A DNA stretch of 64,000 bases from Chloroflexota bacterium (GTDB taxonomy: Bacteria > Chloroflexota > Dehalococcoidia > UBA2247 > RBG-13-53-26): positions 23,418 to 87,417 of the forward strand of contig VGOM01000005.1 in NCBI GenBank assembly GCA_016875915.1, in the 5' to 3' direction. Shown here in pieces: positions 6,115 through 44,806 of the stretch; the stretch's first letter is position 1, and each line of letters begins with the position of its first letter. The position numbers and the translations under genes are program-made. The notes under the pieces are model-generated. The model was not told the DNA's origin. It was given only the letters and a program-made list of their open reading frames with translations, and made no database searches.

Positions 6115-6340
6115 GATGTCACCCCGGAGGAATGTTGCCCCAAAATATATCAAAGAGGACGCAGGCAAGTCAATTTGGGGCCACGCGGGGGGTCGGAAAG
6201 CCGCGGACGGGAACAAAGGGGAGTAGCCCGTCAGGCTGCGGTTGACAGTCGAAGCAACGGCGGCTAGGCTGGAGCCGGCCGGAGCGAAGTGCCCGGGTAT
6301 TGTCCGGCCAACAAGCCGGGGAACTGGGAAGGGGGCAAGG

Positions 6341-7903: not shown

Positions 7904-7967
7904 CGAGCGCGCCGAACTCGGTGGCCCCAGGGTCCATGCTAGAATAGGCGCAGGCAGAAGTCCAAAG

Positions 7968-10361: not shown

Positions 10362-10644
10362 GCTTGCTTCGCTTCAGCCCCACCATCGCCATCTGGCAGG
10401 CCAATGGCTTGAAGGTGGCAGTGACACAACGTGCCCGTCGATGGGCAGCTGACTCTGCAGAGGTAGCCACGCTGGCCTCCAGGCGAGAGCGCGGCCAGTC
10501 CGTGATCACGCCTGGGGGTGAATGGTACAGAGGTTCAGCAAACGGGGATTGGCCCCGATGGCGGGGCAGGGCTCCCCAAGGTGGGGGCTCGCAAGGCGCT
10601 GCATCTGGCGAGCCGCCTCTGCGTTCCCAGGCCACGACTACGGT

Positions 10645-12309
10645 CTATGCAGGCTGTACCCCTGTCATGGTGGCCACATGACGGCCGGCAATCATGCCAA
10701 AGACCATAGCCGGCCCTATCGTTGATCCAGGACCGGGGTACGTACGCCCCATGACTGAGGCTGCGTTGTTGCCTGCCGCGTAGAGGCCACGGATGACCGA
10801 GCCATCCTTGCGCAGCACACGCGCGTGCTGGTCAATGACAAGCCCGCCCATTGTGCCCAAATCGCCCGGCCAGACCTTCAATGCATAGAAAGGCGGTTTC
10901 TCGATTGGTCCGAGGTTGGGATTCGGTTTGACCCTCGGGTCGGAGTAGAAGCGATCATAGGCGCTGTCCCCACGATGGAAGTCCTCGTCCCTTCCGTTTC
11001 TGGCGAACTGAGAGAACCTCTTGGCGGTGGCCATCAGACCAGCCTCGTCGATTCCCATCTTGCGGGCGAGTTCCGGGAGCGAGTCAGCCTTGGTGATGAT
11101 GCCATTCCTATACGCTGACTTCGGTGTAATACGCGGCATCATGTCGGTCCCGATTATGTAGTTGTTGCGATGCCGTGAATCGAGGATGAGATATGCCGGA
11201 ATCGCTGGCACGACCCTGTTGCGCTGATACTGTTGGTGGCCACAGTCAACGTAGGACTGTGACTCGTTCATGAATCGCTGGCCGGAGCTGTCAACTATCA
11301 TGCTGTACGGCATGGAGCGCTCGAAAAGCAATGTCCAAGGACCGCTCTTCAACCTGAGTGTCGGCATCCACCAGGCTTCATCCATCATGGCGACGGCGGC
11401 TCCGACGTCAATTCCGGCCTGGATACCACCCCCCGTATTGCCCGGGGCACCCACCGTCCACTCGGTGGTGATGGGGTGTTCCTGGTACTGCTGCCGCATT
11501 GCATCATTGTGTTCAAAGCCACCCGCAGCGAGTATGACACCACGCCTGGCCAGGATACGTATGTCCTTGCCATCTCTCTTGGCGGTGACACCTACAACGG
11601 CATCGCCTTCCGCTATGAGGCCCACCAGAGGGGTGTTGATCCAGACCGAGACGGAGCGGTCGAGTAGGATCTTGAGCAACTGGCCAACAAGCGCCCCACC
11701 CATGGAAATGCGCCGCTTGCCCATCATTCTCCACAGGACTGTGCGCCTAAGGACAACATCCATCGTGGTGCTGAACCCACTCCAGGTGCGCAGGAATAGG
11801 GGCAAGCTGCGAGCTTCAACGGCTCGCAGTGGCACGGGCATAGCCTGCACCCTGTCTTTCCACTCCTTCCCAAGCAGACGAGGGTCAAACAGCTCGCTCT
11901 CCAGGCAGCGACCCTGGGCGCAACCGCCGGCACGCTCAGGGTAGTAGTCCGGATAGCCTCGGGCAAAGACAGCCTTGAACCCCAGACTTTCGAGCCATTT
12001 CAGCATGTCAGGACCGGTCTTGAGATAGGTCTCACGAAGCTCTTTGGAGCTAGCCGGGCCCTTCTCCGGGATGACCTCATTCATATAGGCCAGCGCTGCC
12101 TCATAGGAGTCATCAACTCCGCACGCCTTCATGAGGTGGCTGTTCGGAATCCAGAAACCACCCCCCGACTTGGCGGTCGAACCCCCGACGCTGTCCATAC
12201 TCTCGAGGACAATCACTTCGCATCCGGCATCACGAGCAGCTACCGCCGCCGTCAGGCCCCCAGCGCCTGATCCTACAACGACGACGTCTATTGCATGTTC
12301 GAATCCCAT
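10645..12309 (-). CDS. FAD-binding dehydrogenase, 3-ketosteroid delta1-dehydrogenase (KstD)/fumarate-reductase flavoprotein-like
   Basis: DVVVVGSGAGGLTAA Rossmann motif, C-terminal GLYAAGNNAASVMGRTYPGPGSTIGPAMVFG typical of FAD_binding_2 KstD-like enzymes; GGAGG SD before ATG 12309. Confidence 0.7.
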   Translation of the reverse strand: MGFEHAIDVVVVGSGAGGLTAAVAARDAGCEVIVLESMDSVGGSTAKSGGGFWIPNSHLMKACGVDDSYEAALAYMNEVIPEKGPASSKELRETYLKTGPDMLKWLESLGFKAVFARGYPDYYPERAGGCAQGRCLESELFDPRLLGKEWKDRVQAMPVPLRAVEARSLPLFLRTWSGFSTTMDVVLRRTVLWRMMGKRRISMGGALVGQLLKILLDRSVSVWINTPLVGLIAEGDAVVGVTAKRDGKDIRILARRGVILAAGGFEHNDAMRQQYQEHPITTEWTVGAPGNTGGGIQAGIDVGAAVAMMDEAWWMPTLRLKSGPWTLLFERSMPYSMIVDSSGQRFMNESQSYVDCGHQQYQRNRVVPAIPAYLILDSRHRNNYIIGTDMMPRITPKSAYRNGIITKADSLPELARKMGIDEAGLMATAKRFSQFARNGRDEDFHRGDSAYDRFYSDPRVKPNPNLGPIEKPPFYALKVWPGDLGTMGGLVIDQHARVLRKDGSVIRGLYAAGNNAASVMGRTYPGPGSTIGPAMVFGMIAGRHVATMTGVQPA

Positions 12310-12570
12310 CTTGTGGCCTCCCGTCTCCCTCCGTCCAGCACTCGCAGCCTGACAATAGAACATGATCCCCATATTGCCAGTCGTTCGTCAACTTCCTGGT
12401 GTTGGTGCCCTGCCCCACCGGTTGTGGCTCTTCTCGGGGTGCAGTCGTCGGAATGAGGGACAACTCGAAGCTCGGGGGTCCTGACATTCTCCAGCCCTGC
12501 TTCCCTGACACTCCTGCACCTGCCGCCATGATTGTGGACCCCACACGGGGATGCTATACTTCCAGGCCTG

Positions 12571-13479
12571 ATGAAGCCGGTCATAGAAGTTGAGCACCTG
12601 AGGAAGGGCTATGCCTCCGTGGTCGCCGTTGACGACGTGTCTTTCAGTGTGGCAGATGGGGAGATATTCGGTCTGCTCGGGCCGAACGGGGCGGGGAAGA
12701 CCACCACGGTGGAGTGCCTTCAGGGCCTGCGCCGGGCCGATGGTGGCCACCTCCAGGTTCTGGGGATTGATCCGCAGTCACAGGCCGGCCAACTCCGCGC
12801 CTTGATGGGCTCGCAGTTGCAGGAATCGGCGCTGCCCGACCGGATCAAGGTCTGGGAGGCCCTGGACCTGTTTGCCTCGTTCAGCCCGCATAGCGCCGAC
12901 TGGCCCACACTGATGGAGCAGTGGGGCCTGTCAGCCAAGCGGAATGCTTCCTTCTCCAGTCTCTCCGGCGGCCAGCGGCAGCGCCTGTTCATCGCCCTGG
13001 CTCTGGTCAACAGGCCCAAGGTGGTCTTCCTCGACGAGATGACTGCCGGACTGGACCCGGGAGCGCGGCGGGGGGCATGGGAGCTCATCCGGGGCATCCG
13101 TGATGGAGGGGCCACGGTGGTGCTGGTGACGCATTTCATGGACGAGGCGGAGAACCTGTGCGACCGCCTGGCCATTGTGGACCATGGCAGGATCGCAGCA
13201 CTGGGCACGCCGCGTGATCTGATCACCGAGTACGCCGGTGAAGTGCGGGTGACCTTCAGCGCCGGGGAGGCCGATCTCTCCTGGCTGGCCGAGATACCGC
13301 ACGTGCGCCAGGTGAAGCGGCGCGGCCCGGTGGTGGAAGTAGCCGGGGACGGCCCGATGGCGGTGCTGGTGGCCGGCGGCCTGGTGCAGCACGGAATGAC
13401 GCCGGCCGATCTGCGCACGGAGCAGTCTACCCTGGAGGACGTGTTCCTGAAACTGACCGGCAGCGGCATGGGGAACTGA
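12571..13479 (+). CDS. ABC transporter ATP-binding protein (ABC-2 type)
   Basis: Walker A GPNGAGKTT, signature LSGGQRQR, Walker B VVFLDE; start chosen at MKPVIEVEHL. Confidence 0.85.
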   Translation: MKPVIEVEHLRKGYASVVAVDDVSFSVADGEIFGLLGPNGAGKTTTVECLQGLRRADGGHLQVLGIDPQSQAGQLRALMGSQLQESALPDRIKVWEALDLFASFSPHSADWPTLMEQWGLSAKRNASFSSLSGGQRQRLFIALALVNRPKVVFLDEMTAGLDPGARRGAWELIRGIRDGGATVVLVTHFMDEAENLCDRLAIVDHGRIAALGTPRDLITEYAGEVRVTFSAGEADLSWLAEIPHVRQVKRRGPVVEVAGDGPMAVLVAGGLVQHGMTPADLRTEQSTLEDVFLKLTGSGMGN

Positions 13480-30722: not shown

Positions 30723-31541
30723 CTACTCCGGCAGCCCGAAGTTGGCCCGCACCCTGGCCCAGTCCTCCTTCGACGGCAGGACGTAGTTCCGGGTCCTGGC
30801 GGGGACAGGCAATCCGCTGCCCTTTCTGATATCCGCCGCCATCTCGGCCATCTTCATACCCACCATGACCGAATCCAGGATGGGCACCACCTGGCCGTCG
30901 ACGGTGATCTTGTTGAACCCCGCCATGCTGCAGAGCAGACTGGTCCCGGCGCAGCCCAGGATGATGACATCAGCCCCGTCGGCCACGCACTCCCGGGCCA
31001 CTTCGGCCACGGCGTCCGCGGCCATCTGGGGATTGCCCAGCCATTTGTCCCAGATCCTGGCGAAGGGTTCCTTGTCGAACCTGATGCCGTTGGGGATCAG
31101 CCGATCCTGAAGCCCGTGCTCCCGGACCTGCTCCTCGATCTGGGCCAGTTGTCCGGGCATGTTGGTGCCGATGATGGCGAAGCGGCGGCCGATCTGGGAG
31201 GCGAAGTGCATCGCCGACTCGGCCGGGCCGAAGATGGGCAGGCCGACCACCGCCCGGGCCTCCCTCACCCCGGGGTCCCCGAAACAGTGGACGCAGGCGG
31301 CGTCGAAGCCTTCCTTGTCGGCCTCAATGAAGGCCTCCACGATGGCCACCCTGTCCAGGAGGGCGAAGTAGGGGTTATCGAAATCCAGGACGTTGTCTCC
31401 CTTGAGCCCCCGCTTGATGGGCTTGAGGACAACCTTGGTATCGGCCCGGAGCACCTTGTTGAAGCTCTGCTGCACCATGCTGAACCAGATGTCGTGGAAT
31501 CCCTCGGGCATCTCCGTGATGTGGACCAGACAGATTCTCAT
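30723..31541 (-). CDS. Asp/Glu/hydantoin racemase family protein (arylmalonate decarboxylase/maleate isomerase-like)
   Basis: Two-domain racemase fold with conserved Cys-containing segments (ACVHCFGDPG, ILGCAGTS). Confidence 0.6.
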   Translation of the reverse strand: MRICLVHITEMPEGFHDIWFSMVQQSFNKVLRADTKVVLKPIKRGLKGDNVLDFDNPYFALLDRVAIVEAFIEADKEGFDAACVHCFGDPGVREARAVVGLPIFGPAESAMHFASQIGRRFAIIGTNMPGQLAQIEEQVREHGLQDRLIPNGIRFDKEPFARIWDKWLGNPQMAADAVAEVARECVADGADVIILGCAGTSLLCSMAGFNKITVDGQVVPILDSVMVGMKMAEMAADIRKGSGLPVPARTRNYVLPSKEDWARVRANFGLPE

Positions 31542-31542
31542 G

Positions 31543-32319
31543 CTACCCCCTTTCGCTTGCTTGGAGTCCGAAAAGGCGATGGGCGTTGTCGGTGGTCTTC
31601 CCGGCCACCGTCTCCGGCGGCAGGCCCTTGATCTCGGCCACGGCCAGCAGGACCCGGGCAACGTCGGCCGGCTCCGAGCGGTGCCCCTGATACGCCACGG
31701 GGCAGTCCGTTTCCAGGAGGAGGCTCTCCAGCGGGGCCTCCTTCACGGCCCGGCGATGCTCGGCGTGATACTCCACGGCCGGGGTGGCCGAGATGAAGTA
31801 GCCCCGGTCAATGATCTCCCTCAGCACGCTGGTCGGCCCGGTGTACCAGTGAAAGACGGCCTTGTCCACGCCGGCCCCGGAGGCCAGGGTGAAGGAATCC
31901 CGCCAGGCATAGCGGGAATGGATGATCGCCGGCTTGCCTGACCGCCGGGCCAGGGCCAGGACGGCGTTGAAGGCCCGGTGCTGCAGTTCTTTGCCGGCGG
32001 CAGCCACCACCCTCTTGTGATAGTCTAGGCCCACCTCGCCGACGGCCACGGCCTGCGGCAGGTGGTCTTCCATGAAACGAATACCCTCGCGCAGCGGCGT
32101 GGCATTGGTGAGCAGTCCGGGATGGAGGCCCAGCGCCGCATAGACGAAGCCCACGTGCGTCGCGGCCATCTCCAGCACCCTCCTGTTCGAGTCCGGGTCC
32201 GAGCCGACAGCCACTATGGCGGTCACCCCGGCCTCACCGGCCCTCTCCAGGGCCGCGGGCAGGTCCGGCAGTTCCTCCAGGTGGGCATGGGTGTCAACCA
32301 GTCTGTGGGCGGGGCTCAT
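31543..32319 (-). CDS. tatD: TatD family metal-dependent hydrolase
   Basis: N-terminal DTHAHL motif, TIM-barrel TatD signature; tightly coupled to downstream racemase gene. Confidence 0.8.
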   Translation of the reverse strand: MSPAHRLVDTHAHLEELPDLPAALERAGEAGVTAIVAVGSDPDSNRRVLEMAATHVGFVYAALGLHPGLLTNATPLREGIRFMEDHLPQAVAVGEVGLDYHKRVVAAAGKELQHRAFNAVLALARRSGKPAIIHSRYAWRDSFTLASGAGVDKAVFHWYTGPTSVLREIIDRGYFISATPAVEYHAEHRRAVKEAPLESLLLETDCPVAYQGHRSEPADVARVLLAVAEIKGLPPETVAGKTTDNAHRLFGLQASERG

Positions 32320-33074
32320 TGGCCGAGGATGTGCCCTTCGACAATGGCGCGCACCGCGGCCGGTCCCGGGGAGGCAGCGGGCAGCTCCGTGATGGGTCGG
32401 CCGATGAGGTCGAACTGGCCGATGGCCTCATCCTGGGGAACAACTCCCAGAACCTCAATGCCGATCTCACCGGCGGACCGCCGGAGCAGGTCCTCGTTGC
32501 CCTGGACCCGGTTGAACACCAGGCCCAGCTTGTCACAGCGGATCACCCCATCATCCCGGACCATCTTCTTGATCAGGGCCGCGGTCTGCAGCCCCCGGGT
32601 GGTGGCGTCGCTGACCACGATCAGGACATCCAGGTGGCGGACCACCTGCCGGTTGATCTGCTCCACGCCGGCTTCGCCGTCGATGATGATGCTGTCAAAG
32701 CTCCTGGAGAGGGTCTCGATGGCCCCCCGGAGCAGGTCGTTCACCGGACAGAAGCAGCCCAGGGTTTCGGTGCGGCCCATGGCCAGCAGGGCGAAACTGT
32801 CCGTCTCCACCAGTGCCTCCAGGACCATGTAGTCCAGCATCTCCCCGAGCTGGGCCTTCTCCTCCTGGCTGCCGCTCCGGGCCGTCTTGATGATCTCCTC
32901 ACGGACCTGGCCCATGGTCCGCTTCACCCGCACCCCGACGGCTCCGGGCAGGCCCAGCGCGGGATCGGCATCGATCAGCAGCAGCCGTCCGGCCCGGCCG
33001 CCGTCCAGCAGGGCCCGGGTCATCATGGCCGTGAAGGCCGTCTTGCCGGTGCCTCCCTTGCCGGAGACGGCCAC
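32316..33074 (-). CDS. P-loop ATPase, CooC/MinD/ParA-like (deviant Walker A); start uncertain
   Basis: VAVSGKGGTGKT deviant Walker A; no in-frame ATG; GTG at 33074 (AAGAGG SD) or TTG at 33128. Confidence 0.6.
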   Translation of the reverse strand: MAVSGKGGTGKTAFTAMMTRALLDGGRAGRLLLIDADPALGLPGAVGVRVKRTMGQVREEIIKTARSGSQEEKAQLGEMLDYMVLEALVETDSFALLAMGRTETLGCFCPVNDLLRGAIETLSRSFDSIIIDGEAGVEQINRQVVRHLDVLIVVSDATTRGLQTAALIKKMVRDDGVIRCDKLGLVFNRVQGNEDLLRRSAGEIGIEVLGVVPQDEAIGQFDLIGRPITELPAASPGPAAVRAIVEGHILGQ

Positions 33075-33102
33075 CAGCCTCTTCTTCGGGGGCGCCGCCT
33101 TC

Positions 33103-33894
33103 TCAGCCAGCGGACGCCTCCGGGGCAACGTCCTTCTGTTTGCGGATCTTGATGACCTCCTTGATCTCATCGCACACCGGTTCATCGGGGCAGGTCCGGC
33201 AGTCCCCCCCGTAGCTGCAGACGTAGGCATCGAAGCCCCGGGCCTTCCAGTCGGCGGCCAGCAGGCTCTTGTAGATCTTCCGCACCTGAGCGCCGATGTC
33301 GTCCAGCGGCCCCAGGTCCTCCCGGCTCGAGGTGACGAAGAGGATCTCCATGGCCTCCACCTTGGGGACTTCCTGCTTGAAGACGGCCATGAGGGCCCGG
33401 CCCAGTGTCTCGAAACCGAAGCCCCTCTGGGCGACATCACGGCTGACCCTGGACCAGATGAGCTGGGAGGTGCTCCGGATCATGTATCCCTCTATCCGGT
33501 CGGCCACAAACTGGGTGTGCTCCAGCGTCTGATGATCCTTCTCTGTCAGCTGTGGTCCGGCCATGATCAGCACCTGACCGAAGGGCAGGCTGGCCCCCGG
33601 CGACTCGGGGATATCGGGGCCGATGAGGGTGATCCGGCCTTCTCTGACCAGGGCGGGATTGTCCGTCCAGAACAGGAAGGCGCAGGAGCCGGCGTCGGGG
33701 TTGCCCATCTCGGCGAAGGTGTCGCCCCGGAGGATGATGCCCGGGTTGGCCCCCGGGCCGACCCTGACCGGCAATCCGTCGAGGAGCCGGTCCACCCCCG
33801 GCGGGCAGTCCATCTCCCGGATCGGCCTGCCCTTCCGGCGGAGATCGGCCACATACGCGGCGATCTTGGTCAGATAGGCATCATAGATAGCCAT
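33103..33894 (-). CDS. Hypothetical protein with C-terminal Cys cluster (CSYGGDCRTCPDEPVC)
   Basis: 263-aa ORF with good coding appearance, C-x7-C-x2-C-x5-C motif at C-terminus; no family recognised. Confidence 0.5.
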   Translation of the reverse strand: MAIYDAYLTKIAAYVADLRRKGRPIREMDCPPGVDRLLDGLPVRVGPGANPGIILRGDTFAEMGNPDAGSCAFLFWTDNPALVREGRITLIGPDIPESPGASLPFGQVLIMAGPQLTEKDHQTLEHTQFVADRIEGYMIRSTSQLIWSRVSRDVAQRGFGFETLGRALMAVFKQEVPKVEAMEILFVTSSREDLGPLDDIGAQVRKIYKSLLAADWKARGFDAYVCSYGGDCRTCPDEPVCDEIKEVIKIRKQKDVAPEASAG

Positions 33895-33999
33895 AGCGGT
33901 GGTTTACCAGCTGTCGGAAAGGATGACCCTTCGACAACTCAGGGGATTCCCTCCCCGGCAGGCGAAGGGTCTCTCCGGGAAACGTCCTCTCTTGCCGGC

Positions 34000-34821
34000 C
34001 TAGCTGTGGGACTTGGCCGCCACGGAGTCCACCTGGGCCTTCTGGGCCACCTTCTCGGCGGCGATCACCGCCGCACCCACCGCCCCGGCGATCTGGGGAT
34101 CCATGGGCAGCTTCTTGATCTTCACCTTCAGCCGCTGCTCCAGGGCTTTGGCCAGGGTCTCATTCTTGGCACAGCCTCCGGTGAGGACGACGTCCTCCAC
34201 CAGTCCCACCCGGCCCACCATGCCGCTCAATCTGCCGGCCACCGAGTTGTTCAGGCCGGCAATAATATCGGCCAGATCGACATCCTCGTTGATCAGGGTG
34301 ATCACCTCGGATTCGGCGAAGACGCTGCACTGGCTGCTGATCACCGCCGGCTTCCGGGCGTCCAGTCCCAGTGTAGAGAGTTGCTCCAGGCTGATATGGA
34401 GCGTGCGGGCCATGGCCTCATAGAACTTGCCCGTCCCCGCGGCGCACTTGTCGTTCATGACGAACTCCAGGACCTTGCCCTTCTCGGTGACGGACATCAC
34501 CTTGCAGTCCTGTCCGCCGATATCGACCACCGTCCTCACCGTCGGGAGCAGCCACTGCGCCCCCCTGGCATGGCAGGTGATCTCCGAGATGTTCTCGTTG
34601 GCAAAGTCGACCTTCAGCCGGCCATAGCCCGTGCCCACGACATAGTCCAGGTCCTCCAGTTTGGACAGCCCGGCCTTCTGCAGTGCCTCATCCATGGCCT
34701 TCCGCGCCGTCACGTCAGGCTTGACGGCGGAAGGGGTGATTGAGAATGAGACAACCTGTCCATCCTTCATGACCACCGCCTTACCGGTGGCGGAACCTAT
34801 GTCGCAGCCTCCAACGATCAT
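34000..34821 (-). CDS. CoA-substrate-specific enzyme activase (HgdC/BadF/BadG/BcrA/BcrD ATPase family), module A
   Basis: ASKHA fold; bridging-cluster cysteines in NDKCAAGTGKF and SSQCSVFAESEV; ATG 34821 with GGAGAAG SD. Confidence 0.8.
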   Translation of the reverse strand: MIVGGCDIGSATGKAVVMKDGQVVSFSITPSAVKPDVTARKAMDEALQKAGLSKLEDLDYVVGTGYGRLKVDFANENISEITCHARGAQWLLPTVRTVVDIGGQDCKVMSVTEKGKVLEFVMNDKCAAGTGKFYEAMARTLHISLEQLSTLGLDARKPAVISSQCSVFAESEVITLINEDVDLADIIAGLNNSVAGRLSGMVGRVGLVEDVVLTGGCAKNETLAKALEQRLKVKIKKLPMDPQIAGAVGAAVIAAEKVAQKAQVDSVAAKSHS

Positions 34822-34875
34822 GGCTTCTCCTCGCTCGGTCATTTCACGCAATGGTGAGCCGTGCCTTCTCTCCGG

Positions 34876-36195
34876 CTAGCCCAAGCCCATCGCGCCAAAG
34901 AACTTGCTCAGCTTGTCCTTGCACTCCTCCGGGGTGGTATACCTCCTGTCAAAGAGGTCAAGCCCAATGTGTAGGTAGGGCACCTTCAGCTCGTTGCAGA
35001 TCTCCCTCATGATGCCGGTGCTGGCCGAGCCGTCCTTGTGGCCCATATGCCCCGGCCAGATGACGCAATCCACCTTGTAGTCCTTGACCACCCGGGCGAT
35101 GTCGCTGGCAAAGTAGTCCGCGATGCCCCGGGCCTGCCTGACCATGGGCGACTCGTAGAGGTTCCTCTTGGCCAGACCCTTGAATATGGTGTCCTCATTC
35201 CGAGTATCCACCGGGGTATAGGGGGTGAAGCCGAACATCTCCATGACCATCACGGCTCCCCATTCCTGCTCCAGCCAGGGCATGAGCTCGAAGCACCATC
35301 CGAAGGGCAGCAGGTCAAACCAGAAGTACCTGATCTTCTCCTTGGGTATAACCCCCCGGCCCTCCTTCACCTTCTTCTCCGTGATGCTGACCAGCCGCCG
35401 GAACCAGTCGGTGCCTCTGGGCTGACCCACCTGGAAGATCTGAGACACGGCGAAGCACTGCGGACCGCCCATGCCCCACCCCTGAGGGCAGGGCACAGCC
35501 CGCCGCAACTGGGCGTACTCCGCCCAGAGCTCGTACTGCTTGTTGGACTCCTTGACCACCTCGCGCAGCCTGTCCAGATCCAGCTTCCGGCCGGTGTTCT
35601 CCTCGATGAAGGCGACCATCTTCTTCAGCTCGTTGGCGAAGTAGTCGATGCCCCTCTGATCCTCAAAGTAGGGTGGGTCGGTGCAGAACATGGGAATACC
35701 GCGCCACTTCTCATTGCGGACCACGGCCTGGTGGAGCATGGTGGCCGCATCGCAGGGATGCAGCAATCCGATCATGCAGGTGGGCGGCGGCGACAGCCCG
35801 GCCTCGATGTAGTACAGCGACAGCCGGCAGGCGGTGCACCAGTCGGTGCCCAGTCCCATGGCCTCGGCGGCATCAACGTCCTCCATCAGATAGGGTGCCG
35901 AGGCAGCCAGGAAGGGGGTCTGCATGATGAGGTACCACGGCAGGTCCATGGCCGTGTAGACCTCCGGGGCGGCATTGAAGTAGCCGGCCACGAAGGGCTT
36001 GTCCTCCTCCGCGCAGCGGATGATGGTGTCGTAGCGGTCCACGGTGATATCGGTGACCTCTTTGCTGAGCTGCATCTCCTCATCGGGCATCAGGGCCAGC
36101 GTGTCGCTCAGGAACTTGAAGAAGTCGCGCTCCTTCCGGTAGCGCTCCAATCCCTTCACCATCAGGGCTCTTCTAGTCTCCTTGTCCATAGCCAT
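34876..36195 (-). CDS. 2-hydroxyacyl-CoA dehydratase / benzoyl-CoA reductase B/C-like subunit (HGD-D family), module A, HgdB-like
   Basis: HGD-D family Cys-containing segments; paralogous to 38796..40070; ATG 36195 with GGGGAGG SD. Confidence 0.75.
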   Translation of the reverse strand: MAMDKETRRALMVKGLERYRKERDFFKFLSDTLALMPDEEMQLSKEVTDITVDRYDTIIRCAEEDKPFVAGYFNAAPEVYTAMDLPWYLIMQTPFLAASAPYLMEDVDAAEAMGLGTDWCTACRLSLYYIEAGLSPPPTCMIGLLHPCDAATMLHQAVVRNEKWRGIPMFCTDPPYFEDQRGIDYFANELKKMVAFIEENTGRKLDLDRLREVVKESNKQYELWAEYAQLRRAVPCPQGWGMGGPQCFAVSQIFQVGQPRGTDWFRRLVSITEKKVKEGRGVIPKEKIRYFWFDLLPFGWCFELMPWLEQEWGAVMVMEMFGFTPYTPVDTRNEDTIFKGLAKRNLYESPMVRQARGIADYFASDIARVVKDYKVDCVIWPGHMGHKDGSASTGIMREICNELKVPYLHIGLDLFDRRYTTPEECKDKLSKFFGAMGLG

Positions 36196-36200
36196 ACTGC

Positions 36201-37349
36201 CTACCTCCCCATCATTTCCAGGAAAGCCTGGACCCGCGTTCTCAACTGCCCAGCACCGATGTTGACGTAGTCCCTGTCCAGCCTGATGTAGGGAATGCCG
36301 GCCTCCTTCAGGTCTTCGCCGGTCATGAACTGCTCGCCCGTCCAGTTGTCGCACATCACCAGACGCTCGGCGATGACCCCATCGACATCGAACTGACGGA
36401 TCATCTCCTTGATGAAGGCCGATCTCCGGGGCTGGTCCCCGAATATCCGGGCACACTGGGGACGGTCATAGAGGTAGTACTGCGCCAGAGCCGTGAATGG
36501 GTCGCCCGCCTTCTCGTCCACCTCCCCCCACATGTTGCGGGTGCCGAAGCAGAGTGAATCGGTGACCACCAGGGCGCCCTGGCTCTCGATCACTTCGATG
36601 TAGGCCGGGTCGTCCAGGATACCGCCGATGAGCATGATCCTGGCCCGATGGTCGGCGTGCCCATCCTTGGACTGACTCAGCTCGTCCACCAGCTCCTTGA
36701 GGAGACCGTTGTAGTACTCCGGCGGCATGGCCGTGCCGGCCACCATCACCGCCAGTGTTTCAGCGCCGGTGATCGGGGGGTTTTTCCGCTTCTTCAACTC
36801 GTAGAGCTGTCTCTGGAGACGGCGGGTCTGGTTGTGGAGCTTGATAGCATCCCACAGCCGATCATCGGAGATCCACACGCCGAAATGGGGTCCCATGCTC
36901 TCCCTGAGGAAGCGAATCTCATCCCGGTACCAGTCGATCTGAGCCTGCTCGTTCTTCTTGGGCAGAGCCAGCAGCCGCAGATATGAGGTATCTATCTTCC
37001 GCTTCCAGTGATCGTAGATGCGGCGGACGTGGTCGCAGCTGTTGACCCAGAGGACGCCATCGAGGAAGCTGTACTCGCCCCTCAGGCCCAGGTCAAGCGA
37101 GTGGCGGACGAAGCTGCAATTGATGCTGCTGACACAGGTATCCGCCAGGTCTGTGCCGGTGCTGCCCGTGCCCCGCATTCGGAAGGGCACAAAGCCCGCG
37201 GCCGTGATCACTTCCACCGGCACGTAGGAGCAGTAGCAGCCGATGACCCGACCCCCCTGATCCTTCCACTTCTGCAACGCCGGATTGACTAGGCACTGGG
37301 TGGCTTCCTGGAACTCCTGCAAGGCCCGGGACTTGATCTTGGTCGCCAA
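36201..37349 (-). CDS. 2-hydroxyacyl-CoA dehydratase / BcrB/BadD-like subunit (HGD-D family), module A, HgdA-like
   Basis: N-terminal GCYCSYVPVEV and C-terminal GQLRTRVQAFLEMMGR shared with paralog 37645..38799. Confidence 0.75.
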   Translation of the reverse strand: MATKIKSRALQEFQEATQCLVNPALQKWKDQGGRVIGCYCSYVPVEVITAAGFVPFRMRGTGSTGTDLADTCVSSINCSFVRHSLDLGLRGEYSFLDGVLWVNSCDHVRRIYDHWKRKIDTSYLRLLALPKKNEQAQIDWYRDEIRFLRESMGPHFGVWISDDRLWDAIKLHNQTRRLQRQLYELKKRKNPPITGAETLAVMVAGTAMPPEYYNGLLKELVDELSQSKDGHADHRARIMLIGGILDDPAYIEVIESQGALVVTDSLCFGTRNMWGEVDEKAGDPFTALAQYYLYDRPQCARIFGDQPRRSAFIKEMIRQFDVDGVIAERLVMCDNWTGEQFMTGEDLKEAGIPYIRLDRDYVNIGAGQLRTRVQAFLEMMGR

Positions 37350-37533
37350 TTCACTTCCCCCCTTTCCAGGCGGCGCACTTCAAAGCGCCACTCCTGTCCG
37401 CTTGTTTCGATGGTCTACCCGCCAAATCAGCTCAGTCTAACAAGGAAAGACAGTGTGGGTCAAACGATTTGGAGCGCCCGTCAGGGGTGCCAAGGCAGGC
37501 GCAATGGGATGAATGCCGCCGGTGGGGAAATGC

Positions 37534-37547: not shown

Positions 37548-37644
37548 CACCGCAATTTGTTACGATGTACGGCTGTGTGCCTCTTCCGATCGGGGCAGGG
37601 CAACCGAGGATGATAGTGTCAATCGGACTTGGTGAGGGAGTGAC

Positions 37645-38799
37645 ATAGCCAGTACCCTGGAAACGCTGCGCGAAATCCGGGCAGTCAACTCCTCTTTCCC
37701 TTGCCCTGATCCCGTCAGATCCTGGAAAGAGCAGGGGAAGAGGGTCATCGCCTTCCAGTGCACCTATGTCCCTGAGGAGGTCGTTCACGCCGCCGGCATA
37801 CTCCCCATCAGGCTGACCGGCGATTCCGAAGAGCCCTCCCTGGAGGAAGCCAATGCCTATATGTACATCAACACCTGCTCGTTCGTCCGGGGCTGCCTCG
37901 ACCTGGTCCTGAAGAAACGCTATCAGTTCCTGGACGGCTTCGTGTCCGGGTCGACCTGCGACTGCCCCCGTCGCCTGACCGATGTGTGGCAGCACTACGA
38001 TTTCACTCCCTTTGTGTACATCCTGGATGTGCCCCGCAAGATGACCCAGGCAGCTCATGCCCTCTACCGGGAGGAGGTGCAGGGACTGAAGAAGCGGATC
38101 GAGGAGTCCTTCGGCCTGCATATCTCCGATGAGGCACTGCGCCGTTCAATCGAGACGTACAACCGCACCAGAACGCTGCTGAAGAAGCTCTATGAGCTGC
38201 GCAAGTCCGACTGCCCCCCGGTCACCGGGGCCGAGGTCCTGGAGGTCCTGGATGCCGGCTTCAAGATGCCCAGGGAGGAGTTCAACAGGGTTCTGGAGAG
38301 ATTGGTCGATGAAGCCGGCAAGGGAGAGAGAACGGTGCCGGCAAGGTTCCGGTTGATGATCAGCGGCAGCCCGCTGAACAACCCGGAGTTCATCCGGGGC
38401 ATCGAGGAACTCGGGGGGCTGGTGGTCGTGGACGAGCTGTGCACCGGGGTCCGTCACTGGTGGGACCTGGTGGACGAGAGCCCCGGCGTCGATCCCGTGG
38501 AGGCCCTCTCCCGCCGCTATCTGAACAACTTCCCCTGCCCGCGGATGTATCCGCCGGAGGAGCGGTTCGACAGGGCGGTGCAACTGGTCAGGGAATACCG
38601 TGTTGACGGGGTGATCAGCGAGGTGGTGCGCTACTGCGTCCATTGTGCCCATGATCAGCCCCTGCTGAAGCGGACCCTGGAGGGAGAGGGCGTCCCGGTG
38701 CTGGAGCTGAGCCTGGAGTACGGAGCTTCCGGAACAGGCCAGATACGGACCCGGGTGCAGGCCTTTCTGGAGATGCTGGAGGCCAGGTCAGGGAGATGA
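37645..38799 (+). CDS. HgdA/BcrB/BadD-like subunit (HGD-D family), module B; non-canonical start
   Basis: Frame opens after TGA at 37633-35; no ATG/GTG/TTG before conserved N-terminus; ATA at 37645 sits 4 nt after GAGGGAG SD where ATG is expected (ATA GCC AGT ACC CTG ~ M A S T L). Confidence 0.65.
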   Translation: MASTLETLREIRAVNSSFPCPDPVRSWKEQGKRVIAFQCTYVPEEVVHAAGILPIRLTGDSEEPSLEEANAYMYINTCSFVRGCLDLVLKKRYQFLDGFVSGSTCDCPRRLTDVWQHYDFTPFVYILDVPRKMTQAAHALYREEVQGLKKRIEESFGLHISDEALRRSIETYNRTRTLLKKLYELRKSDCPPVTGAEVLEVLDAGFKMPREEFNRVLERLVDEAGKGERTVPARFRLMISGSPLNNPEFIRGIEELGGLVVVDELCTGVRHWWDLVDESPGVDPVEALSRRYLNNFPCPRMYPPEERFDRAVQLVREYRVDGVISEVVRYCVHCAHDQPLLKRTLEGEGVPVLELSLEYGASGTGQIRTRVQAFLEMLEARSGR

Positions 38800-40070
38800 C
38801 CACGACCGTCGCCGATACCGCCAAGCTGCGGCAGATTGTGGAAGTGGTGGATGCGGTGGCCAAGCTGCAGAGGCAGCGCCTGGAACGGGAGCCCGACGCC
38901 GTCAACTACCAGATCGTGGTCCGCTATTTCAACAACGTGCTCACAGCCAAAGAGGAAGGCAAGCTGGTCGTGGCCCACACTCCCATGATTGCCCCGGAGA
39001 TCCTCTTTGCCATGGATATCGTTCCCCTCCAGCTCGAGTTCGCCGCTACCCTGGCGGCGCAGATCATCCCGGGGATTCAGGAATGCTTCAGCACCGCGGC
39101 GACGGCCGGGCTGGCCCCGGAGATTTGCTCCGCTCAGAGACTCATCGCCGGACAGGCCATCCAGAGGTGGCTGCCCCGGCCCGACGCCCTGATCTGGAGC
39201 AACCAGGTCTGTGACAACACCGCCAAAGGCGGCAATCTCCTGGCTGAGGTCTTCGACTGCCCCAGCTTCTTCCTGGACCGCCCCTATCAGTTCTCAGAGA
39301 GGGGAGTGCACTACTTCACGGAGCAACTGAAGGAGCTCATCCGTTTCCTGGAGAACCTCACCGGCCGGAGGATGGACTGGGACCGATTCTCTGAGGTGAT
39401 GGAATACTCCCGCCGCCTGCAGGACCTGCACCGGGAGATCCGGGAGTTGCGCAAGGCCGTGCCCTGTCCCTGGCGCAACCTGTGGTTCATACACATGCAG
39501 GGCACTGAGATGTATTGGGCCGGGAGCCCGGAGGCCATCGCCCACCTGGAGGCCATAAGGGACGCCGCCAGGCAGAAGGTCACCGAGGGCAAAGGGTATG
39601 TCCCCGTTGAGAGATTCCGCATCCTGACCATCTTCGTCCCCCCGACATCCGGCTGGGCAATGATGGGCTGGATGCAGGGCAAGCACGGGGCCGTCTGCGT
39701 CGCCGAGCCCTATTTCTCATTCCGGGATGGGGAGGCCATCGACCCGGCCAAACCCCTGCAGAGCCTGGCCCGGAAGTGCTTCTACTGCCCCATCTGCGGT
39801 CCCATGCACGGGCCGGCCAGCGAAGGGATTGTCCGCGATACGGTGCGAGATGCTGTAGACTACAAGGCGGAAGGGGCGGTGTGTTTTGCCAGCATCGGCT
39901 GCCGGCAGACAGACGCTTGCATCAGAATGCTCAAGGAGTCTCTGCAGGAGAAAGCGGGCATCCCCATGCTGGTCCTGGACAATGACACCTACGACCCCAC
40001 CTACGTACCGGAGGATCAACTGAGGGACAAGCTGGACGAGTTCTTCGAGTTGCTGGAGGGGCGGAAGTAG
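38796..40070 (+). CDS. HgdB/BcrC/BadE-like subunit (HGD-D family), module B
   Basis: ATGA overlap with upstream gene; AGGGAG SD; paralog of 34876..36195. Confidence 0.75.
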   Translation: MTTTVADTAKLRQIVEVVDAVAKLQRQRLEREPDAVNYQIVVRYFNNVLTAKEEGKLVVAHTPMIAPEILFAMDIVPLQLEFAATLAAQIIPGIQECFSTAATAGLAPEICSAQRLIAGQAIQRWLPRPDALIWSNQVCDNTAKGGNLLAEVFDCPSFFLDRPYQFSERGVHYFTEQLKELIRFLENLTGRRMDWDRFSEVMEYSRRLQDLHREIRELRKAVPCPWRNLWFIHMQGTEMYWAGSPEAIAHLEAIRDAARQKVTEGKGYVPVERFRILTIFVPPTSGWAMMGWMQGKHGAVCVAEPYFSFRDGEAIDPAKPLQSLARKCFYCPICGPMHGPASEGIVRDTVRDAVDYKAEGAVCFASIGCRQTDACIRMLKESLQEKAGIPMLVLDNDTYDPTYVPEDQLRDKLDEFFELLEGRK

Positions 40071-40116
40071 TCCGGGTCCAGTTTCCGGGGATCATGGCCA
40101 TCATCGAGGTTGAGCT

Positions 40117-40902
40117 ATGTTCGTGGCCGGCATTGACATAGGATCGAGAGGCTCCAAGGCAGTGATAATGGAGGACAGCCAGTTGGTGTCCTTCAGCATC
40201 TGCGAGACAGGGCCCGAGAGCACCAAGTCAGCGCAGTCCACCATCGACCAGGCCCTCGAAGGCACCGGGCTTACACTTGAAGACGTCGAGTACGTCGTGG
40301 CCACCGGCTACGGCAGGATTCTGGTGCCGTTTGCCAAGGCCAACGTATCCGAGATCTCTTGCCACGCCAGGGGGGCTCACTGGTATTTCCCCTCGGTGAG
40401 GACCATCCTGGACATGGGCGGGCAGGACTGCAAGGCCATCAACTGCGATGAGAAGGGCCGGGTGACCAACTTCATCATGAACGACAAGTGCGCCGGCGGC
40501 ACGGGGAGGTTCCTGGAGGTGATCGCCGACGTGCTCCAGGTCCCCCTGGATGAGATCGGCCACCTGTCACTGCAGTCAACACAGAGCGTGGCCTTCAGCA
40601 CGGTCTGCGCCGTCTTCGCCAAGTCCGAAGCCCTGGCCCTGGCCAGAAGCGGCGTCCCCAAGAGCGATATCCTGGCCGGGCTTCACGACGCCATCGCCGT
40701 GCGCTGCCTCAACCTGCTCAGAAGGGTGGTGCTGGACAAGGATTTCACCGTCACCGGGGGCATCTCCAAGAACGCCGGCATGGTGGACAAGATCCGGAAG
40801 AAGGTGGGGCTGGAGCCCGTTCTGGCCCCGGACCCCCAGATCATCGGCGCCCTGGGCGCCGCCCTCTACGCTCAGGAGAAGGCTCAGGGGCAGATGAATT
40901 GA
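40117..40902 (+). CDS. BadF/BadG/BcrA/BcrD-type ATPase (activase) 1, module B
   Basis: MFVAGIDIGSRGSKAV ASKHA N-terminus; NDKCAGGTGRF and STVCAVFAKSEA cluster-binding cysteines. Confidence 0.8.
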   Translation: MFVAGIDIGSRGSKAVIMEDSQLVSFSICETGPESTKSAQSTIDQALEGTGLTLEDVEYVVATGYGRILVPFAKANVSEISCHARGAHWYFPSVRTILDMGGQDCKAINCDEKGRVTNFIMNDKCAGGTGRFLEVIADVLQVPLDEIGHLSLQSTQSVAFSTVCAVFAKSEALALARSGVPKSDILAGLHDAIAVRCLNLLRRVVLDKDFTVTGGISKNAGMVDKIRKKVGLEPVLAPDPQIIGALGAALYAQEKAQGQMN

Positions 40903-40909
40903 AGGGCGA

Positions 40910-41746
40910 ATGCCATCATCGCCGGCAGCACTCCGGCCCGGACCGGCAGGCCTAGCGGTGCTCTACGCCGGTCTGGATATGGGCAACCTGACCACCAAGG
41001 CAGTCATCCTGAAGGATGAGCAGATCCTGTCTCAGGCAATGGTCAACTCGGTGGAGGACGGGGAGTCCCGGGCCAGGACGGCCCTGGACATGGCCCTGGA
41101 AGGCACCGGCTTCGGCACCGGCGATATTGCCTGCATCGTGGCCACGGGGGCGGGAAGGAAGGCCATCTCCCTGGCTCAGAAGCAGAGGGCGCCTAGCTCC
41201 TGCCTGGCCAGGGGCATCAGCCGTCTCCTTCCATCGGTCCGGACCCTCATCGACGTGGGGGCGGAGACCTGCACCGTGGTCCGGGTCAACGACAGGGGAG
41301 TGGCGGATGACTCCATCGGCAACGAGCGATGCGCCTCGGGCACAGGGGTCTTTCTGGAGACCATGGCCAAGCTGATGCAGATGCCCCTGGAGGAAATGGC
41401 CAGGGCGTCCATGCTGGCCGAGGACAAGGCCGAGATCACCAATATGTGCGCCGTCTTCGCCGAGCAGGAGGTCATCTCCCACGTTCATCGCGACCCTCCA
41501 ACGCCGAAGAATGATATCATTGCCGGCATACACGCTTCCATGGCCACACAGGTGGGCGGACTGGCCAAGAGAATGGGCATCAAGACTGACGTGGCCCTCA
41601 CCGGGGGTGTGGCCAGGAACGCCGGCTTCGTGTCTGCCCTGCAGGAGAACCTGGGCGTGGTCCTGATGGTCCCCGACAGGCCGGAGTTCGTGGCAGCCCT
41701 GGGGGCAGCCTGCGCCGCCCGCGACGAAGCCTGTCGTTCCGCCTGA
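40910..41746 (+). CDS. BadF/BadG/BcrA/BcrD-type ATPase (activase) 2, module B (divergent second ATPase subunit)
   Basis: GLDMGNLTTKAV, NERCASGTGVF, TNMCAVFAEQEV; clearly distinct from ATPase 1, consistent with a heterodimeric BcrA/BcrD-like pair. Confidence 0.75.
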   Translation: MPSSPAALRPGPAGLAVLYAGLDMGNLTTKAVILKDEQILSQAMVNSVEDGESRARTALDMALEGTGFGTGDIACIVATGAGRKAISLAQKQRAPSSCLARGISRLLPSVRTLIDVGAETCTVVRVNDRGVADDSIGNERCASGTGVFLETMAKLMQMPLEEMARASMLAEDKAEITNMCAVFAEQEVISHVHRDPPTPKNDIIAGIHASMATQVGGLAKRMGIKTDVALTGGVARNAGFVSALQENLGVVLMVPDRPEFVAALGAACAARDEACRSA

Positions 41747-43314: not shown

Positions 43315-44610
43315 TCACGATCCCAGAATAGCCTCAAGGTCTTCTTCCGGCGTGGTGATCGGCTTCAGATCGAAATTGTCCTGGAGCGCCTTGAGCACGT
43401 TGGGGGTGATCCAAGCCGGCAGTGTCGGGCCGATCCGGATGCCCTTCACGCCCAGATACAGAAGTGAGAGCAGGATAGCCACCGCCTTCTGCTCAAACCA
43501 GGACAAAACCAAGGACAGAGGGAGCTCATTCACGCTGCAATTGAAGGCCTCCGCCAGGGCAGCGGCCACCCTGACAGCAGAGTGGGCATCGTTGCACTGG
43601 CCGATGTCTATCAGGCGGGGGATGCCGTCAATCGAGCCGAAGTCCAGGTCGTTGAAGCGGTACTTGCCGCAGGCCAGCGTCAGGATGACGCAATCCTGGG
43701 GCACCTTCTCCGCCAGTTCGGTGTAGTAGTTCCGACCACTCCTGGCCCCGTCGCATCCTCCAATGAGGAAGAAGTGGCGTATCTTGCCCGCCTTCACCGC
43801 GCCCACGACCTTGCCCGCCAGCGACAGAATGGCGGTGTGGTGGAAGCCGGTGGTCAGGGTCTTCCCTTCCTTGTGATGCAGCTTGGGCAGCGCCAGGGCC
43901 TTCCGGACCACCGGACTGAAGTCCCCATCAGCGATGTGGGTTGCCCCGGGCACGGCAACAACCCCGGTGGTGAACAGCCGGTCCTCATAGCTGCCCTTCT
44001 TCGGGATCAGCACGCAGTTGGTGGTGGCCAGTATCGGGCCGGGGAAATCGGCGAATTCCCGCTTCTGGTCCTGCCAGGCTCTGCCGAAGTTGCCGGCCAA
44101 GTGCTTGAACTTCCTCAGCTCGGGATAGGCATGGGCCGGCAGCATCTCCCCATGCGTGTAGACCCTGACCCCGCTGCCTTCGCTCTGCTCCAGTAGCTGG
44201 CGGAGGTCAAGCAGGTCATGCCCCGTCACCAGGATTCCATGGCCTGACTCCCTGCCCGTGGACACAGCCACCGGGCCCGGGGTGCCGAAGCGGTCGACAT
44301 GAGCCTGGTCCAGCACCTCCATTGCTTTGAGGTTGATCTTGCCGCACTCGAGGACCAAGTTCAACAGGCTACCGAGATCGAAGTTGACGTTGGTCAGGGT
44401 GGAGAACAAGGCTCTGGAGTAGAACTCAGCCACCTCCGGGTCGGCGTATCCCAGCCTTCTGGCATGGTAGTCATAGGCAGCGATCCCCTTGATCCCGTAG
44501 ACCAGGGTATCCTGCAGACTGCTGACGTCTTCGTTCTTGCCGCACGCCCCTGTGCTGGCGCATCCGGTGCCCGCTACCGTTTGCTCACATTGATTGCAGA
44601 ACATACTCAT
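43315..44610 (-). CDS. hcp: Hybrid cluster protein (hydroxylamine reductase) Hcp
   Basis: N-terminal MFCNQCEQTVAGTGCASTGAC cubane-cluster motif (C-x2-C-x8-C-x5-C); AAAGGAG SD before ATG 44610. Confidence 0.9.
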   Translation of the reverse strand: MSMFCNQCEQTVAGTGCASTGACGKNEDVSSLQDTLVYGIKGIAAYDYHARRLGYADPEVAEFYSRALFSTLTNVNFDLGSLLNLVLECGKINLKAMEVLDQAHVDRFGTPGPVAVSTGRESGHGILVTGHDLLDLRQLLEQSEGSGVRVYTHGEMLPAHAYPELRKFKHLAGNFGRAWQDQKREFADFPGPILATTNCVLIPKKGSYEDRLFTTGVVAVPGATHIADGDFSPVVRKALALPKLHHKEGKTLTTGFHHTAILSLAGKVVGAVKAGKIRHFFLIGGCDGARSGRNYYTELAEKVPQDCVILTLACGKYRFNDLDFGSIDGIPRLIDIGQCNDAHSAVRVAAALAEAFNCSVNELPLSLVLSWFEQKAVAILLSLLYLGVKGIRIGPTLPAWITPNVLKALQDNFDLKPITTPEEDLEAILGS

Positions 44611-44806
44611 TGACCCGCTCCTTTCCGTTTTCGGTGATGAGCCGAGTCTAGCCCGAGCCAGACCAGCGCGTAAATGATCTGGATCATACCGGATCAAGCC
44701 CCCTGAACGTCCGCGCCCCTGCCGGCCAACCCACCGCAGTCCGGGGCGACGGTTGTGCTAAGATGGAAGGTAGCAGCCGTCGTGCTGAAGGAAGGAGGGT
44801 TTCGTC

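Follow-up and report, generated by a model that had tools for sequence, protein, structure and literature searches.

Introduction

Benzoyl-CoA reductases (BCR), 2-hydroxyacyl-CoA dehydratases (HAD) and double-cubane cluster proteins (DCCP) carry out chemistry that is among the most reducing in biology, and their known parts are two HGD-D subunits, an activase of the ASKHA type and a ferredoxin or flavodoxin that serves as electron donor. Here, we analyse a 64,000-nt stretch of DNA from a Chloroflexota bacterium (contig VGOM01000005.1; the whole stretch is called the window), in which five genes on the minus strand (32316–37349) appear to encode a member of this family together with two extra proteins. 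One of these, of 263 aa, is a truncated, A2-only relative of acetyl-CoA synthase (ACS) with a four-cysteine predicted metal site; we call it mini-ACS. The other is a P-loop ATPase that appears CooC-like. The locus seems to represent a known enzyme family with a previously unremarked accessory module.

Among ACS genes, acsB often adjoins acsF or cooC. The products of these genes provide a precedent for a chaperone–client relation, in which CooC inserts nickel into the C-cluster of carbon monoxide dehydrogenase (CODH) and AcsF into the A-cluster of ACS; these nickel insertions are said to have been shown by Jeoung in 2009 and 2010 and by Gregg in 2016. ACS occurs as AcsB, with domains A1–A3, and as CdhC, with domains A2–A3, and a phylogenetic survey of ACS forms from 2026 describes only these two architectures. 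Mini-ACS has the A2 domain in common with both, in sequence and in fold. Domains A1 and A3 and the Cys-Gly-Cys nickel site are absent from its 263-aa sequence, and its cysteines are spaced C-x5-C-x2-C-x5-C, whereas ACS has C-x2-C-x8-C-x9-C. The mini-ACS gene is likewise encoded beside a CooC-family ATPase, but its further partners are HGD-D and activase genes rather than genes for CODH, the corrinoid iron–sulphur protein (CoFeSP) or a methyltransferase. Similarly, the window ATPase shares with CooC1 (3kje) a deviant Walker A motif, a similar length and, at the aligned position, the CxC motif that in CooC/AcsF binds metal at the dimer interface, but unlike CooC1 and AcsF it adjoins neither CODH nor a full ACS.

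Two kinds of described enzyme come close to the core of the system. In BzdNOPQ (8s02), BzdN binds an [8Fe-9S] double cubane through Cys36/73/100/263/293/327, and BzdO binds the catalytic [4Fe-4S]-OH2 cluster through Cys95/128/380 (PMC11971306). The beta subunit encoded here keeps the six double-cubane ligands, the alpha subunit has three conserved cysteines, and the partner is again an ASKHA-type ATPase. BzdNOPQ has two different ATPase subunits, however, while the present locus has one activase and the additional mini-ACS and CooC-like genes. DCCP with DCCP-R (6eno, 7yyl) and HadBC or HgdAB with HadI or HgdC share with our system the HGD-D fold and a single homodimer-type activase, but DCCP is a homodimer whereas the enzyme here is an alpha/beta pair.

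Nowhere in the full-text literature that could be searched are BCR, HAD or DCCP gene clusters described as including an ACS-domain protein or a CooC-type ATPase; most subscription journals lie outside this coverage, so that absence is no proof. Publications that name both CooC and BCR proved to be unrelated genome papers. Within this literature, the statement of a preliminary description of this DNA, that it knew of no HGD/BCR system described with such an arrangement, is borne out.

The five-gene cassette and its conservation

The list of open reading frames (ORFs) and Pfam place seven closely packed, co-directional genes on the minus strand at 30723–37349, in an order running from 37349 to 30723. 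The intergenic spacing is −26 to +105 nt, and the GC content at third codon positions (GC3) is 0.84–0.90 for all seven genes, as in coding sequence (window GC ~63%). The first gene encodes a beta-type HGD-D subunit (36201–37349; BzdN/HadC/HgdB-like, 382 aa from a TTG start; Pfam HGD-D E 1e-92) and is followed by that for an alpha-type HGD-D subunit (34876–36195; BzdO/HadB/HgdA-like, 439 aa; Pfam HGD-D, PF06050, E 9e-46), whose ATG lies 5 nt past the stop of the beta-subunit gene. Next come the gene for an activase of the BcrAD/HgdC type (34000–34851; 283 aa if it starts at TTG 34851, 273 aa if at ATG 34821; Pfam BcrAD_BadFG E 3e-59), the mini-ACS gene (33103–33894; Pfam CdhC, PF03598, E 1e-16) and the gene for a predicted CooC-type SIMIBI P-loop ATPase of ~270 aa (32316–33128; Pfam CbiA). 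The two remaining genes are discussed with the neighbouring genes below. All genes that the preliminary description had placed on this strand are present and co-directional.

A scan of one genome per species gave 55 loci, which we searched by tblastn with the window proteins. The motifs used to seed the scan came from the Chloroflexota-like subfamily, to which the set is hence biased; therefore, four distant members (L062–L065) were examined separately. The 55 loci derive mostly from Dehalococcoidia/Chloroflexota metagenome-assembled genomes (MAGs), the others from Ignavibacteria, Binatia, proteobacterial MAGs, Deferrimicrobium, Abyssobacteria, Desulforapulum, Syntrophaceae and Helarchaeota. 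Fifty-one loci are non-redundant with at least 0.9 kb of sequence downstream, and a CooC-like gene lies no more than 1.5 kb downstream of mini-ACS in 46 of them. Of these, 38 loci extend upstream by 4.5 kb or more as well; among them, an activase is found in 35, both HGD-D subunits in 35 and everything (two HGD-D subunits, activase, mini-ACS and ATPase) in 32. The order HGD-D, HGD-D, BcrAD, CdhC-like, CbiA recurs in the neighbourhoods of three homologs on long contigs. The five-gene cassette is also kept in L062–L065, where mini-ACS identity is 33%, 33%, 26% and 26%, respectively; in L065 it stands alone among the housekeeping genes of a Gram-negative bacterium. This genomic association, in the 51 and 38 loci and equally in the distant cassettes, supports the conclusion that mini-ACS and the ATPase are a dedicated accessory pair of this HGD/BCR-type enzyme. 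The preliminary description had proposed such a pair together with a check of the co-occurrence of the ATPase with HGD-D neighbourhoods, and the two prove to be tightly linked.

Several loci have other arrangements of the catalytic subunits. Two HGD-D pairs, or extra O-like subunits, surround one activase–mini-ACS–CooC set in eight loci (L014, L015, L026, L029, L032, L034, L042 and L044), and in L063 the set forms a separate unit, convergent with the HGD-D pair. In the archaeal locus L057 (7106–9557), the activase, mini-ACS and CooC-like genes occur together with no HGD-D gene within 8 kb on either side, while archaeal L053 (2971–8850) has activase and mini-ACS, a CooC-like gene ~3.5 kb further downstream and no HGD-D gene in its flanks. 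From these arrangements, the accessory pair resembles a service module used in common, as the activase is, more than a subunit specific for one substrate; the single sets with two HGD-D pairs suggest that one such module feeds several catalytic paralogs. The source organisms of L057 and L053 are Helarchaeota and an uncultured archaeon, respectively, and the catalytic partner in these loci may be encoded elsewhere.

Mini-ACS

The preliminary description treated the 263-aa product as a Cys-rich unknown protein. It can be identified as a homolog of the ACS A2 domain by three methods. First, it scores 61.5 bits against Pfam CdhC (PF03598; gathering cut-off 24 bits) over residues 42–190. Second, when the PDB is searched with a profile built from 15 mini-ACS homologs, all matches are to ACS/CdhC chains (E 1.6e-18 to 2e-12), and the matched region corresponds to residues 314–475 of Moorella ACS and 4–191 of Methanosarcina CdhC, that is, to the middle (A2) domain. 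Third, a Foldseek search with the AF2 model (pLDDT 77, pTM 0.76) returns only ACS chains (E 3e-9 to 1e-4), the next matches having E near 1. The NCBIfam cdhC and CODH_ACS alpha/beta models give 54–68 bits, far from their cut-offs of 356–809.

The protein is laid out as an N-terminal helix, the A2-domain homolog, a long helix and the four-cysteine (Cys4) motif C226-x5-C232-x2-C235-x5-C241, and it ends 22 residues after the motif; the spacing C-x7-C-x2-C-x5-C given earlier is to be corrected accordingly. In the HMMER profile alignment, C226 pairs with the first A-cluster cysteine of CdhC, and in a MAFFT pair alignment with the genuine CdhC of L061, C232 and C241 (CPDEPVC) fall on the second and third cubane ligands (FAPTNVC). 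Because both alignments pair its cysteines with ligands, the Cys4 motif sits at the site where ACS begins to bind the [4Fe-4S] cubane of its A-cluster. In an alignment of 31 sequences that reaches down to 23–26% identity, C232, C235 and C241 are invariant and C226 is absent once. The strongest conservation common to mini-ACS and ACS is found in the IEGYM..W-x-R-V-S..KGF-x-F block of the A2 domain.

A protein from a Chloroflexi bacterium MAG, which NCBI names hypothetical, matches mini-ACS with 100% identity. We found 1031 homologs at E≤1e-3 in a database clustered at 90%, and the family comprises 498 clusters at 50% identity, of which the best 150 are nearly all 160–310 aa long. That the ORF might be spurious, a point raised in the preliminary description, can be rejected on the basis of the more than 1000 homologs, a coding-type GC3 of 0.87 and the motif, whose cysteines are kept down to ~25% identity. 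Mini-ACS adds an A2-only architecture to the known ACS forms.

The CooC-like ATPase

The ATPase carries VAVSGKGGTGKT, and its gene starts at TTG 33128 or GTG 33074. TTG 33128 is the most likely start; it overlaps the mini-ACS stop by 26 nt, and a homologous overlap of 29 nt is present in L005. The protein contains the deviant Walker A motif GKGGTGKT and a G-C125-F-C127-P motif, and the GCFCP sequence aligns with CYC of CooC1. In a phmmer search against solved structures, CooC1 of C. hydrogenoformans (3kje) ranks first with an E of only 8e-12, followed by FleN at 1e-10. The partner ATPases of the other loci have the deviant Walker A motif in 46 of 47 cases and G-C-[FY]-C in all 47, and both features are kept in the distant cassettes L062–L065.

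A fold search was uninformative for placing the ATPase within the SIMIBI class, as MinD, FlhG, CooC1 and NifH all match at ~1e-11. Since fold alone fails to discriminate, the assignment as CooC-like rests on the best sequence match and the CxC motif. A deviant-Walker-A ATPase of CooC/MinD type had already been recognized in the preliminary description, and with GKGGTGKT present and CooC1 as the best solved relative our analysis agrees.

The core enzyme

The best solved relative of the beta subunit is BzdN (8s02_B, E 8e-46), with which it aligns end to end, followed by HadC, MbdN and DCCP. Its cysteines C40, C78, C105, C267, C299 and C333 align with the six double-cubane ligands of BzdN; among 47 homologs, five are invariant and C40 is kept in 98%. 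Among 52 homologs of the alpha subunit, C120 is invariant, C148 is found in 98% and C400 in 85%; the distant cassettes keep these three cysteines as well. In number and spacing, they resemble the three cluster ligands of BzdO.

The activase scores 260 bits against NCBIfam CoA_E_activ (TIGR00241; cut-off 125). Its C126 and C165, numbered from the ATG, are invariant among homologs, including those of the distant cassettes, and presumably correspond to Cys127 and Cys166 of A. fermentans HgdC, which bind the bridging cluster. The minus-strand unit has this single activase gene and not two different ATPase subunits.

None of the equivalog models is reached by the HGD-D subunits. For the beta subunit, the top match is double_cubane with 222 of the required 350 bits, and BzdN gives 162 vs 454 and HadC 153 vs 700 bits; for the alpha subunit, BzdO gives 43 vs 449 and HadB 45 vs 750 bits, and every other equivalog model, including BcrB/C, scores far below its cut-off. 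The activase gives 202 vs 380 bits with BzdQ. Because all equivalogs stay below cut-off and there is one activase gene, the enzyme appears to be an uncharacterised member of the BzdNO/DCCP type. It had been referred to as a radical dehydratase; with its six-cysteine beta subunit, it looks in this window like a double-cubane BzdNO/DCCP-type reductase, and a reductase is more probable than a dehydratase. The labels HgdA-like and HgdB-like, moreover, had been swapped: the 382-aa protein with the GQLRTRVQAFLEM tail, which ends GQLRTRVQAFLEMMGR, is the beta (HgdB)-like subunit and the 439-aa protein the alpha (HgdA)-like subunit.

In L062–L065, the beta subunit keeps three of the six double-cubane cysteines (the equivalents of C78, C105 and C333) and in this respect resembles HadC, whereas the six-cysteine beta subunit of the window sets its enzyme apart from HgdAB and HadBC, in which that subunit has a three-cysteine site of the [4Fe-5S] type. 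The cassettes with a three-cysteine beta subunit still have both partners, so the accessory pair is not tied to the double cubane; it spans double-cubane and single-cubane forms of the enzyme.

Discussion

We propose that the five genes at 32316–37349 encode one functional system. Its core would be an ATP-dependent, low-potential Fe-S enzyme of the BCR class I/HAD/DCCP family with one HgdC-type activase, in which the beta subunit carries the six-cysteine double-cubane motif and the alpha subunit the three-cysteine catalytic [4Fe-4S] site. Since the 263-aa protein is a truncated ACS homolog, it and its CooC-like neighbour look like a co-opted ACS/AcsF-type pair, probably descended from ACS and a CooC/AcsF-type maturase. 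In a first step, a dimer of the CooC-like ATPase, by means of its CxC motif and the hydrolysis of ATP, would load the Cys4 motif of mini-ACS with a metal centre or repair the centre there; this would most likely be a [4Fe-4S] cluster, with nickel as a possibility. In a second step, the loaded mini-ACS would serve the activase/reductase machinery as its own small metallo-subunit and would most plausibly be a low-potential electron entry point, as ferredoxin is in known BCR/HAD systems. With this role it is consistent that the ferredoxin motif CxxCxxCxxxC occurs in no frame of the 64-kb window and that the cassettes contain no ferredoxin gene.

That a CooC-type chaperone loads mini-ACS, which in turn serves the activase/reductase, is the explanation we tentatively favour, at somewhat less than an even chance. 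Gene anatomy, domain identities, motif conservation and co-occurrence across phyla are shown; which metal is bound, and that mini-ACS is a client of the chaperone and delivers electrons, is inferred. Several observations weigh against it. In Foldseek, CooC1 ranks slightly lower than FlhG, FleN and MinD and is closely followed by NifH, and no NCBIfam model passes its cut-off for the ATPase, for which the only matches are weak ones to MinD/ParA. The Cys4 region of the mini-ACS model is of low confidence (pLDDT 55–61), and C-x5-C-x2-C-x5-C is non-canonical as a ferredoxin motif and could bind structural zinc. A CooC-like gene is missing from L043 and L045, each with two activases, the Ignavibacteria loci lack an activase close by, and in L056 the pair stands beside an aldehyde:ferredoxin oxidoreductase (AFOR) and a tungstate/molybdate ABC transporter, with no HGD-D gene within 8 kb. 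Furthermore, BzdNO and DCCP work without mini-ACS or CooC-type partners, and BzdNO acquires both its clusters in E. coli without such factors (PMC11971306).

The last finding also counts against a second explanation, in which the pair is a cluster-assembly machinery: with the ATPase as insertase and mini-ACS as scaffold, it would assemble the Fe-S centres of the HGD-D subunits themselves or restore them, and mini-ACS would stay outside the working enzyme, by analogy with NifH, a SIMIBI ATPase that matures the nitrogenase P-cluster from two cubanes. An analogy between the double cubane and the P*-cluster has been drawn (PMC7317905). Beta subunits with the six-cysteine [8Fe-9S] motif occur both here and in 47 related loci, NifH and CooC1 are equally near to the ATPase in structure, and in several loci one accessory set accompanies two HGD-D pairs. 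The pair is nevertheless found with beta subunits that have three of the six cysteines (L062–L065), which weakens a function specific to double-cubane assembly. No separate set belongs to the plus-strand paralog in the window or to other HGD-D pairs, and L057 keeps activase, mini-ACS and CooC-like ATPase without an adjacent HGD-D gene. We consider an assembly machinery unlikely, though still a serious contender.

Less probable again is a role in substrate handling, in which the A2 domain of mini-ACS would bind CoA and dock the CoA thioester, or cap the substrate channel, on the HGD-D heterodimer; Cys4 would then be a structural zinc knuckle and the ATPase an assembly or regulatory factor. In ACS, domain 2 is said to have been implicated in CoA binding by Doukov in 2002, and the A2 block IEGYM..W-x-R-V-S..KGF-x-F is the most strongly conserved part that mini-ACS shares with ACS. 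Genes for acyl-CoA dehydrogenases, thiolases, MaoC hydratases and family III CoA-transferases often abound in the neighbourhoods, and in FldA there is a precedent for a CoA-transferase as a subunit of phenyllactate dehydratase. Trp418 of ACS, which we take to be the residue linked to CoA binding, aligns however with Met138 of mini-ACS and is not conserved. One mini-ACS for two different HGD-D pairs fits a generic service role better, the L065 cassette lies among housekeeping genes with no CoA metabolism nearby, and the invariant CxC motif of the ATPase argues for the handling of metal.

A more far-reaching version of the metal-handling proposal has a slim chance of being correct. Here, mini-ACS and the ATPase would form a nickel-dependent or A-cluster-derived Ni-Fe-S centre that takes part in catalysis or electron activation, with Cys4 completed in trans, for example by the CxC motif of the ATPase mimicking Cys-Gly-Cys. 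If true, this would be the first nickel-dependent member of the BCR/HAD/DCCP radical enzymes and an evolutionary bridge between ACS and the ATP-driven Fe-S reductases.

Very improbable, in our view, is that the ATPase is a second ATP-driven electron pump, which would hold a redox cluster at the CxC interface of its dimer like the nitrogenase Fe protein and bring the mini-ACS cluster to a very low potential, working in series with the HgdC-type activase or in parallel to it. In principle, a cubane could be bound by the four cysteines that two CxC motifs contribute to a dimer interface, NifH, BchL and the Fe proteins of methylthio-alkane reductase are among the best structural matches of the ATPase, and there are weak Pfam Fer4_NifH matches. 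These matches cover model positions 142–227 only and the cluster ligands of NifH are unmatched, while the best sequence relative is CooC1, with its CxC aligned. We know of no precedent for two ATP-dependent electron activators in one five-gene unit.

Ordinary Wood–Ljungdahl genes, among which the 263-aa protein would be one part of a CODH/ACS beta subunit that has been split and the ATPase would be the normal CooC/AcsF of a nearby CODH/ACS, are suggested by the public names and by a Prismane/CODH-family gene 6 kb away (43315–44697), but are effectively refuted: by tblastn, the A2 domain of the genuine CdhC of L061 gives 64 significant matches across the window and the ~63 loci whereas its A3 domain finds nothing there (best E 0.099), the NCBIfam ACS models stay far below their cut-offs, and neither the window nor the annotated neighbourhoods contain genes for CODH, a corrinoid Fe-S protein or a methyltransferase. 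The gene at 43315–44697 (minus strand) encodes a genuine hybrid-cluster protein (hydroxylamine reductase) in its short, 460-aa form (TIGR01703, 675 bits vs a cut-off of 361 bits) and is absent from the other loci, so that a CooC serving a nearby CODH can be rejected.

Returning to the accessory pair, it would represent a widespread two-gene module, composed of the A2 domain of ACS and a CooC-type ATPase, for the BCR/HAD/DCCP family, with at least 498 clusters at 50% identity. Its range includes Chloroflexota/Dehalococcoidia, Ignavibacteria, Binatia, proteobacterial and desulfobacterial MAGs and Asgard archaea. In public databases, the mini-ACS family carries the IMG label "CO dehydrogenase/acetyl-CoA synthase beta subunit", and close homologs of the ATPase are labelled "CO dehydrogenase maturation factor/protein" by IMG and NCBI. 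Such labels could yield false calls of the Wood–Ljungdahl pathway or of CO metabolism in subsurface Chloroflexota MAGs.

Neighbouring genes

Divergent from the cassette lies a paralogous module with the architecture of a class I BCR (37645–41746, plus strand; Pfam and NCBIfam). It consists of an N-like HGD-D subunit (37645–38799; Pfam), an O-like HGD-D subunit (38796–40070; Pfam) and two different BcrAD ATPases (40117–40902 and 40910–41746; Pfam and NCBIfam), and it has no mini-ACS/CooC set of its own. The preliminary description had assigned one ATPase to the minus-strand module, which holds: the single activase gene there contrasts with the two different ATPase subunits of the plus-strand, BCR-type module. 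It had also called the two modules clear paralogs. They are indeed paralogous, but distant, with 41% identity between the N-like and 28% between the O-like pair; the C-terminal GQ[LI]RTRVQAFLEM tail is also present in BzdN and HadC, and as a family signature it is no evidence of a recent duplication. The same divergent layout of two modules is found in L008.

In the plus-strand HGD-D gene, 72 conserved N-terminal residues are encoded in frame upstream of the listed ATG 37861 (region 37633–37861), and with them the protein matches Pfam HGD-D over positions 1–342 of 342. No ATG, GTG or TTG occurs between the upstream stop and 37861. Translation could begin non-canonically at ATA 37645, which follows GGTGAGGGAG, or else the sequence may contain an error.

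A promoter-like site on the minus strand (TTGACC-18-TAGACT with an extended TG; 37434–37463), found by motif scan, lies between the two divergent modules, ~85 nt ahead of the first cassette gene. It is the sole match in 7.4 kb, a count that equals the chance expectation, and is therefore weak evidence.

Downstream of the ATPase gene, the minus-strand run continues with the gene for a TatD-family metal-dependent hydrolase (31543–32319; Pfam TatD_DNase E 3e-58), translationally coupled to the ATPase gene, and ends with that for a protein of the Asp/Glu/hydantoin-racemase family (30723–31541; Pfam Asp_Glu_race E 4e-25). TatD follows the cassette only in the closest loci (L005 and L007–L011), and the racemase is likewise restricted to the closest loci. 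Both genes are thus present and co-directional, as the preliminary description had it, but they are lineage-specific neighbours outside the conserved core, and we rejected them as core components. Below 30.7 kb lie housekeeping genes (GTPase, FtsH, MoaE, polyprenyl synthase and MetRS). No tRNA genes were found in the 64-kb window. The antisense ORF 32887–34743 (plus strand) has a GC3 of 0.66, which is non-coding-like when compared with 0.84–0.90 for the real genes; long antisense ORFs of this kind are high-GC artefacts.

In other genomes, further genes recur near the cassette. The L056 locus (5061–13063) belongs to a Candidatus Abyssobacteria MAG, where the divergent AFOR is a tungsten enzyme and no activase lies within 8 kb; an AFOR is also found near the cassette in L003 and L004. 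Low-potential enzymes of different kinds may be served by the mini-ACS/CooC pair. Unrelated organisms repeatedly have an APH-family kinase and/or a DUF7064/DUF7065 protein beside the cassette (L003, 4306–6458; L005, 305–2811; L057, 2902–3795), and in L005 and L006 a flavoprotein of the old-yellow-enzyme type (Oxidored_FMN and Pyr_redox_2, 667 aa) adjoins it. These kinase, DUF and flavoprotein neighbours may offer clues to the substrate, for example alicyclic or aromatic CoA esters or phosphorylated intermediates.

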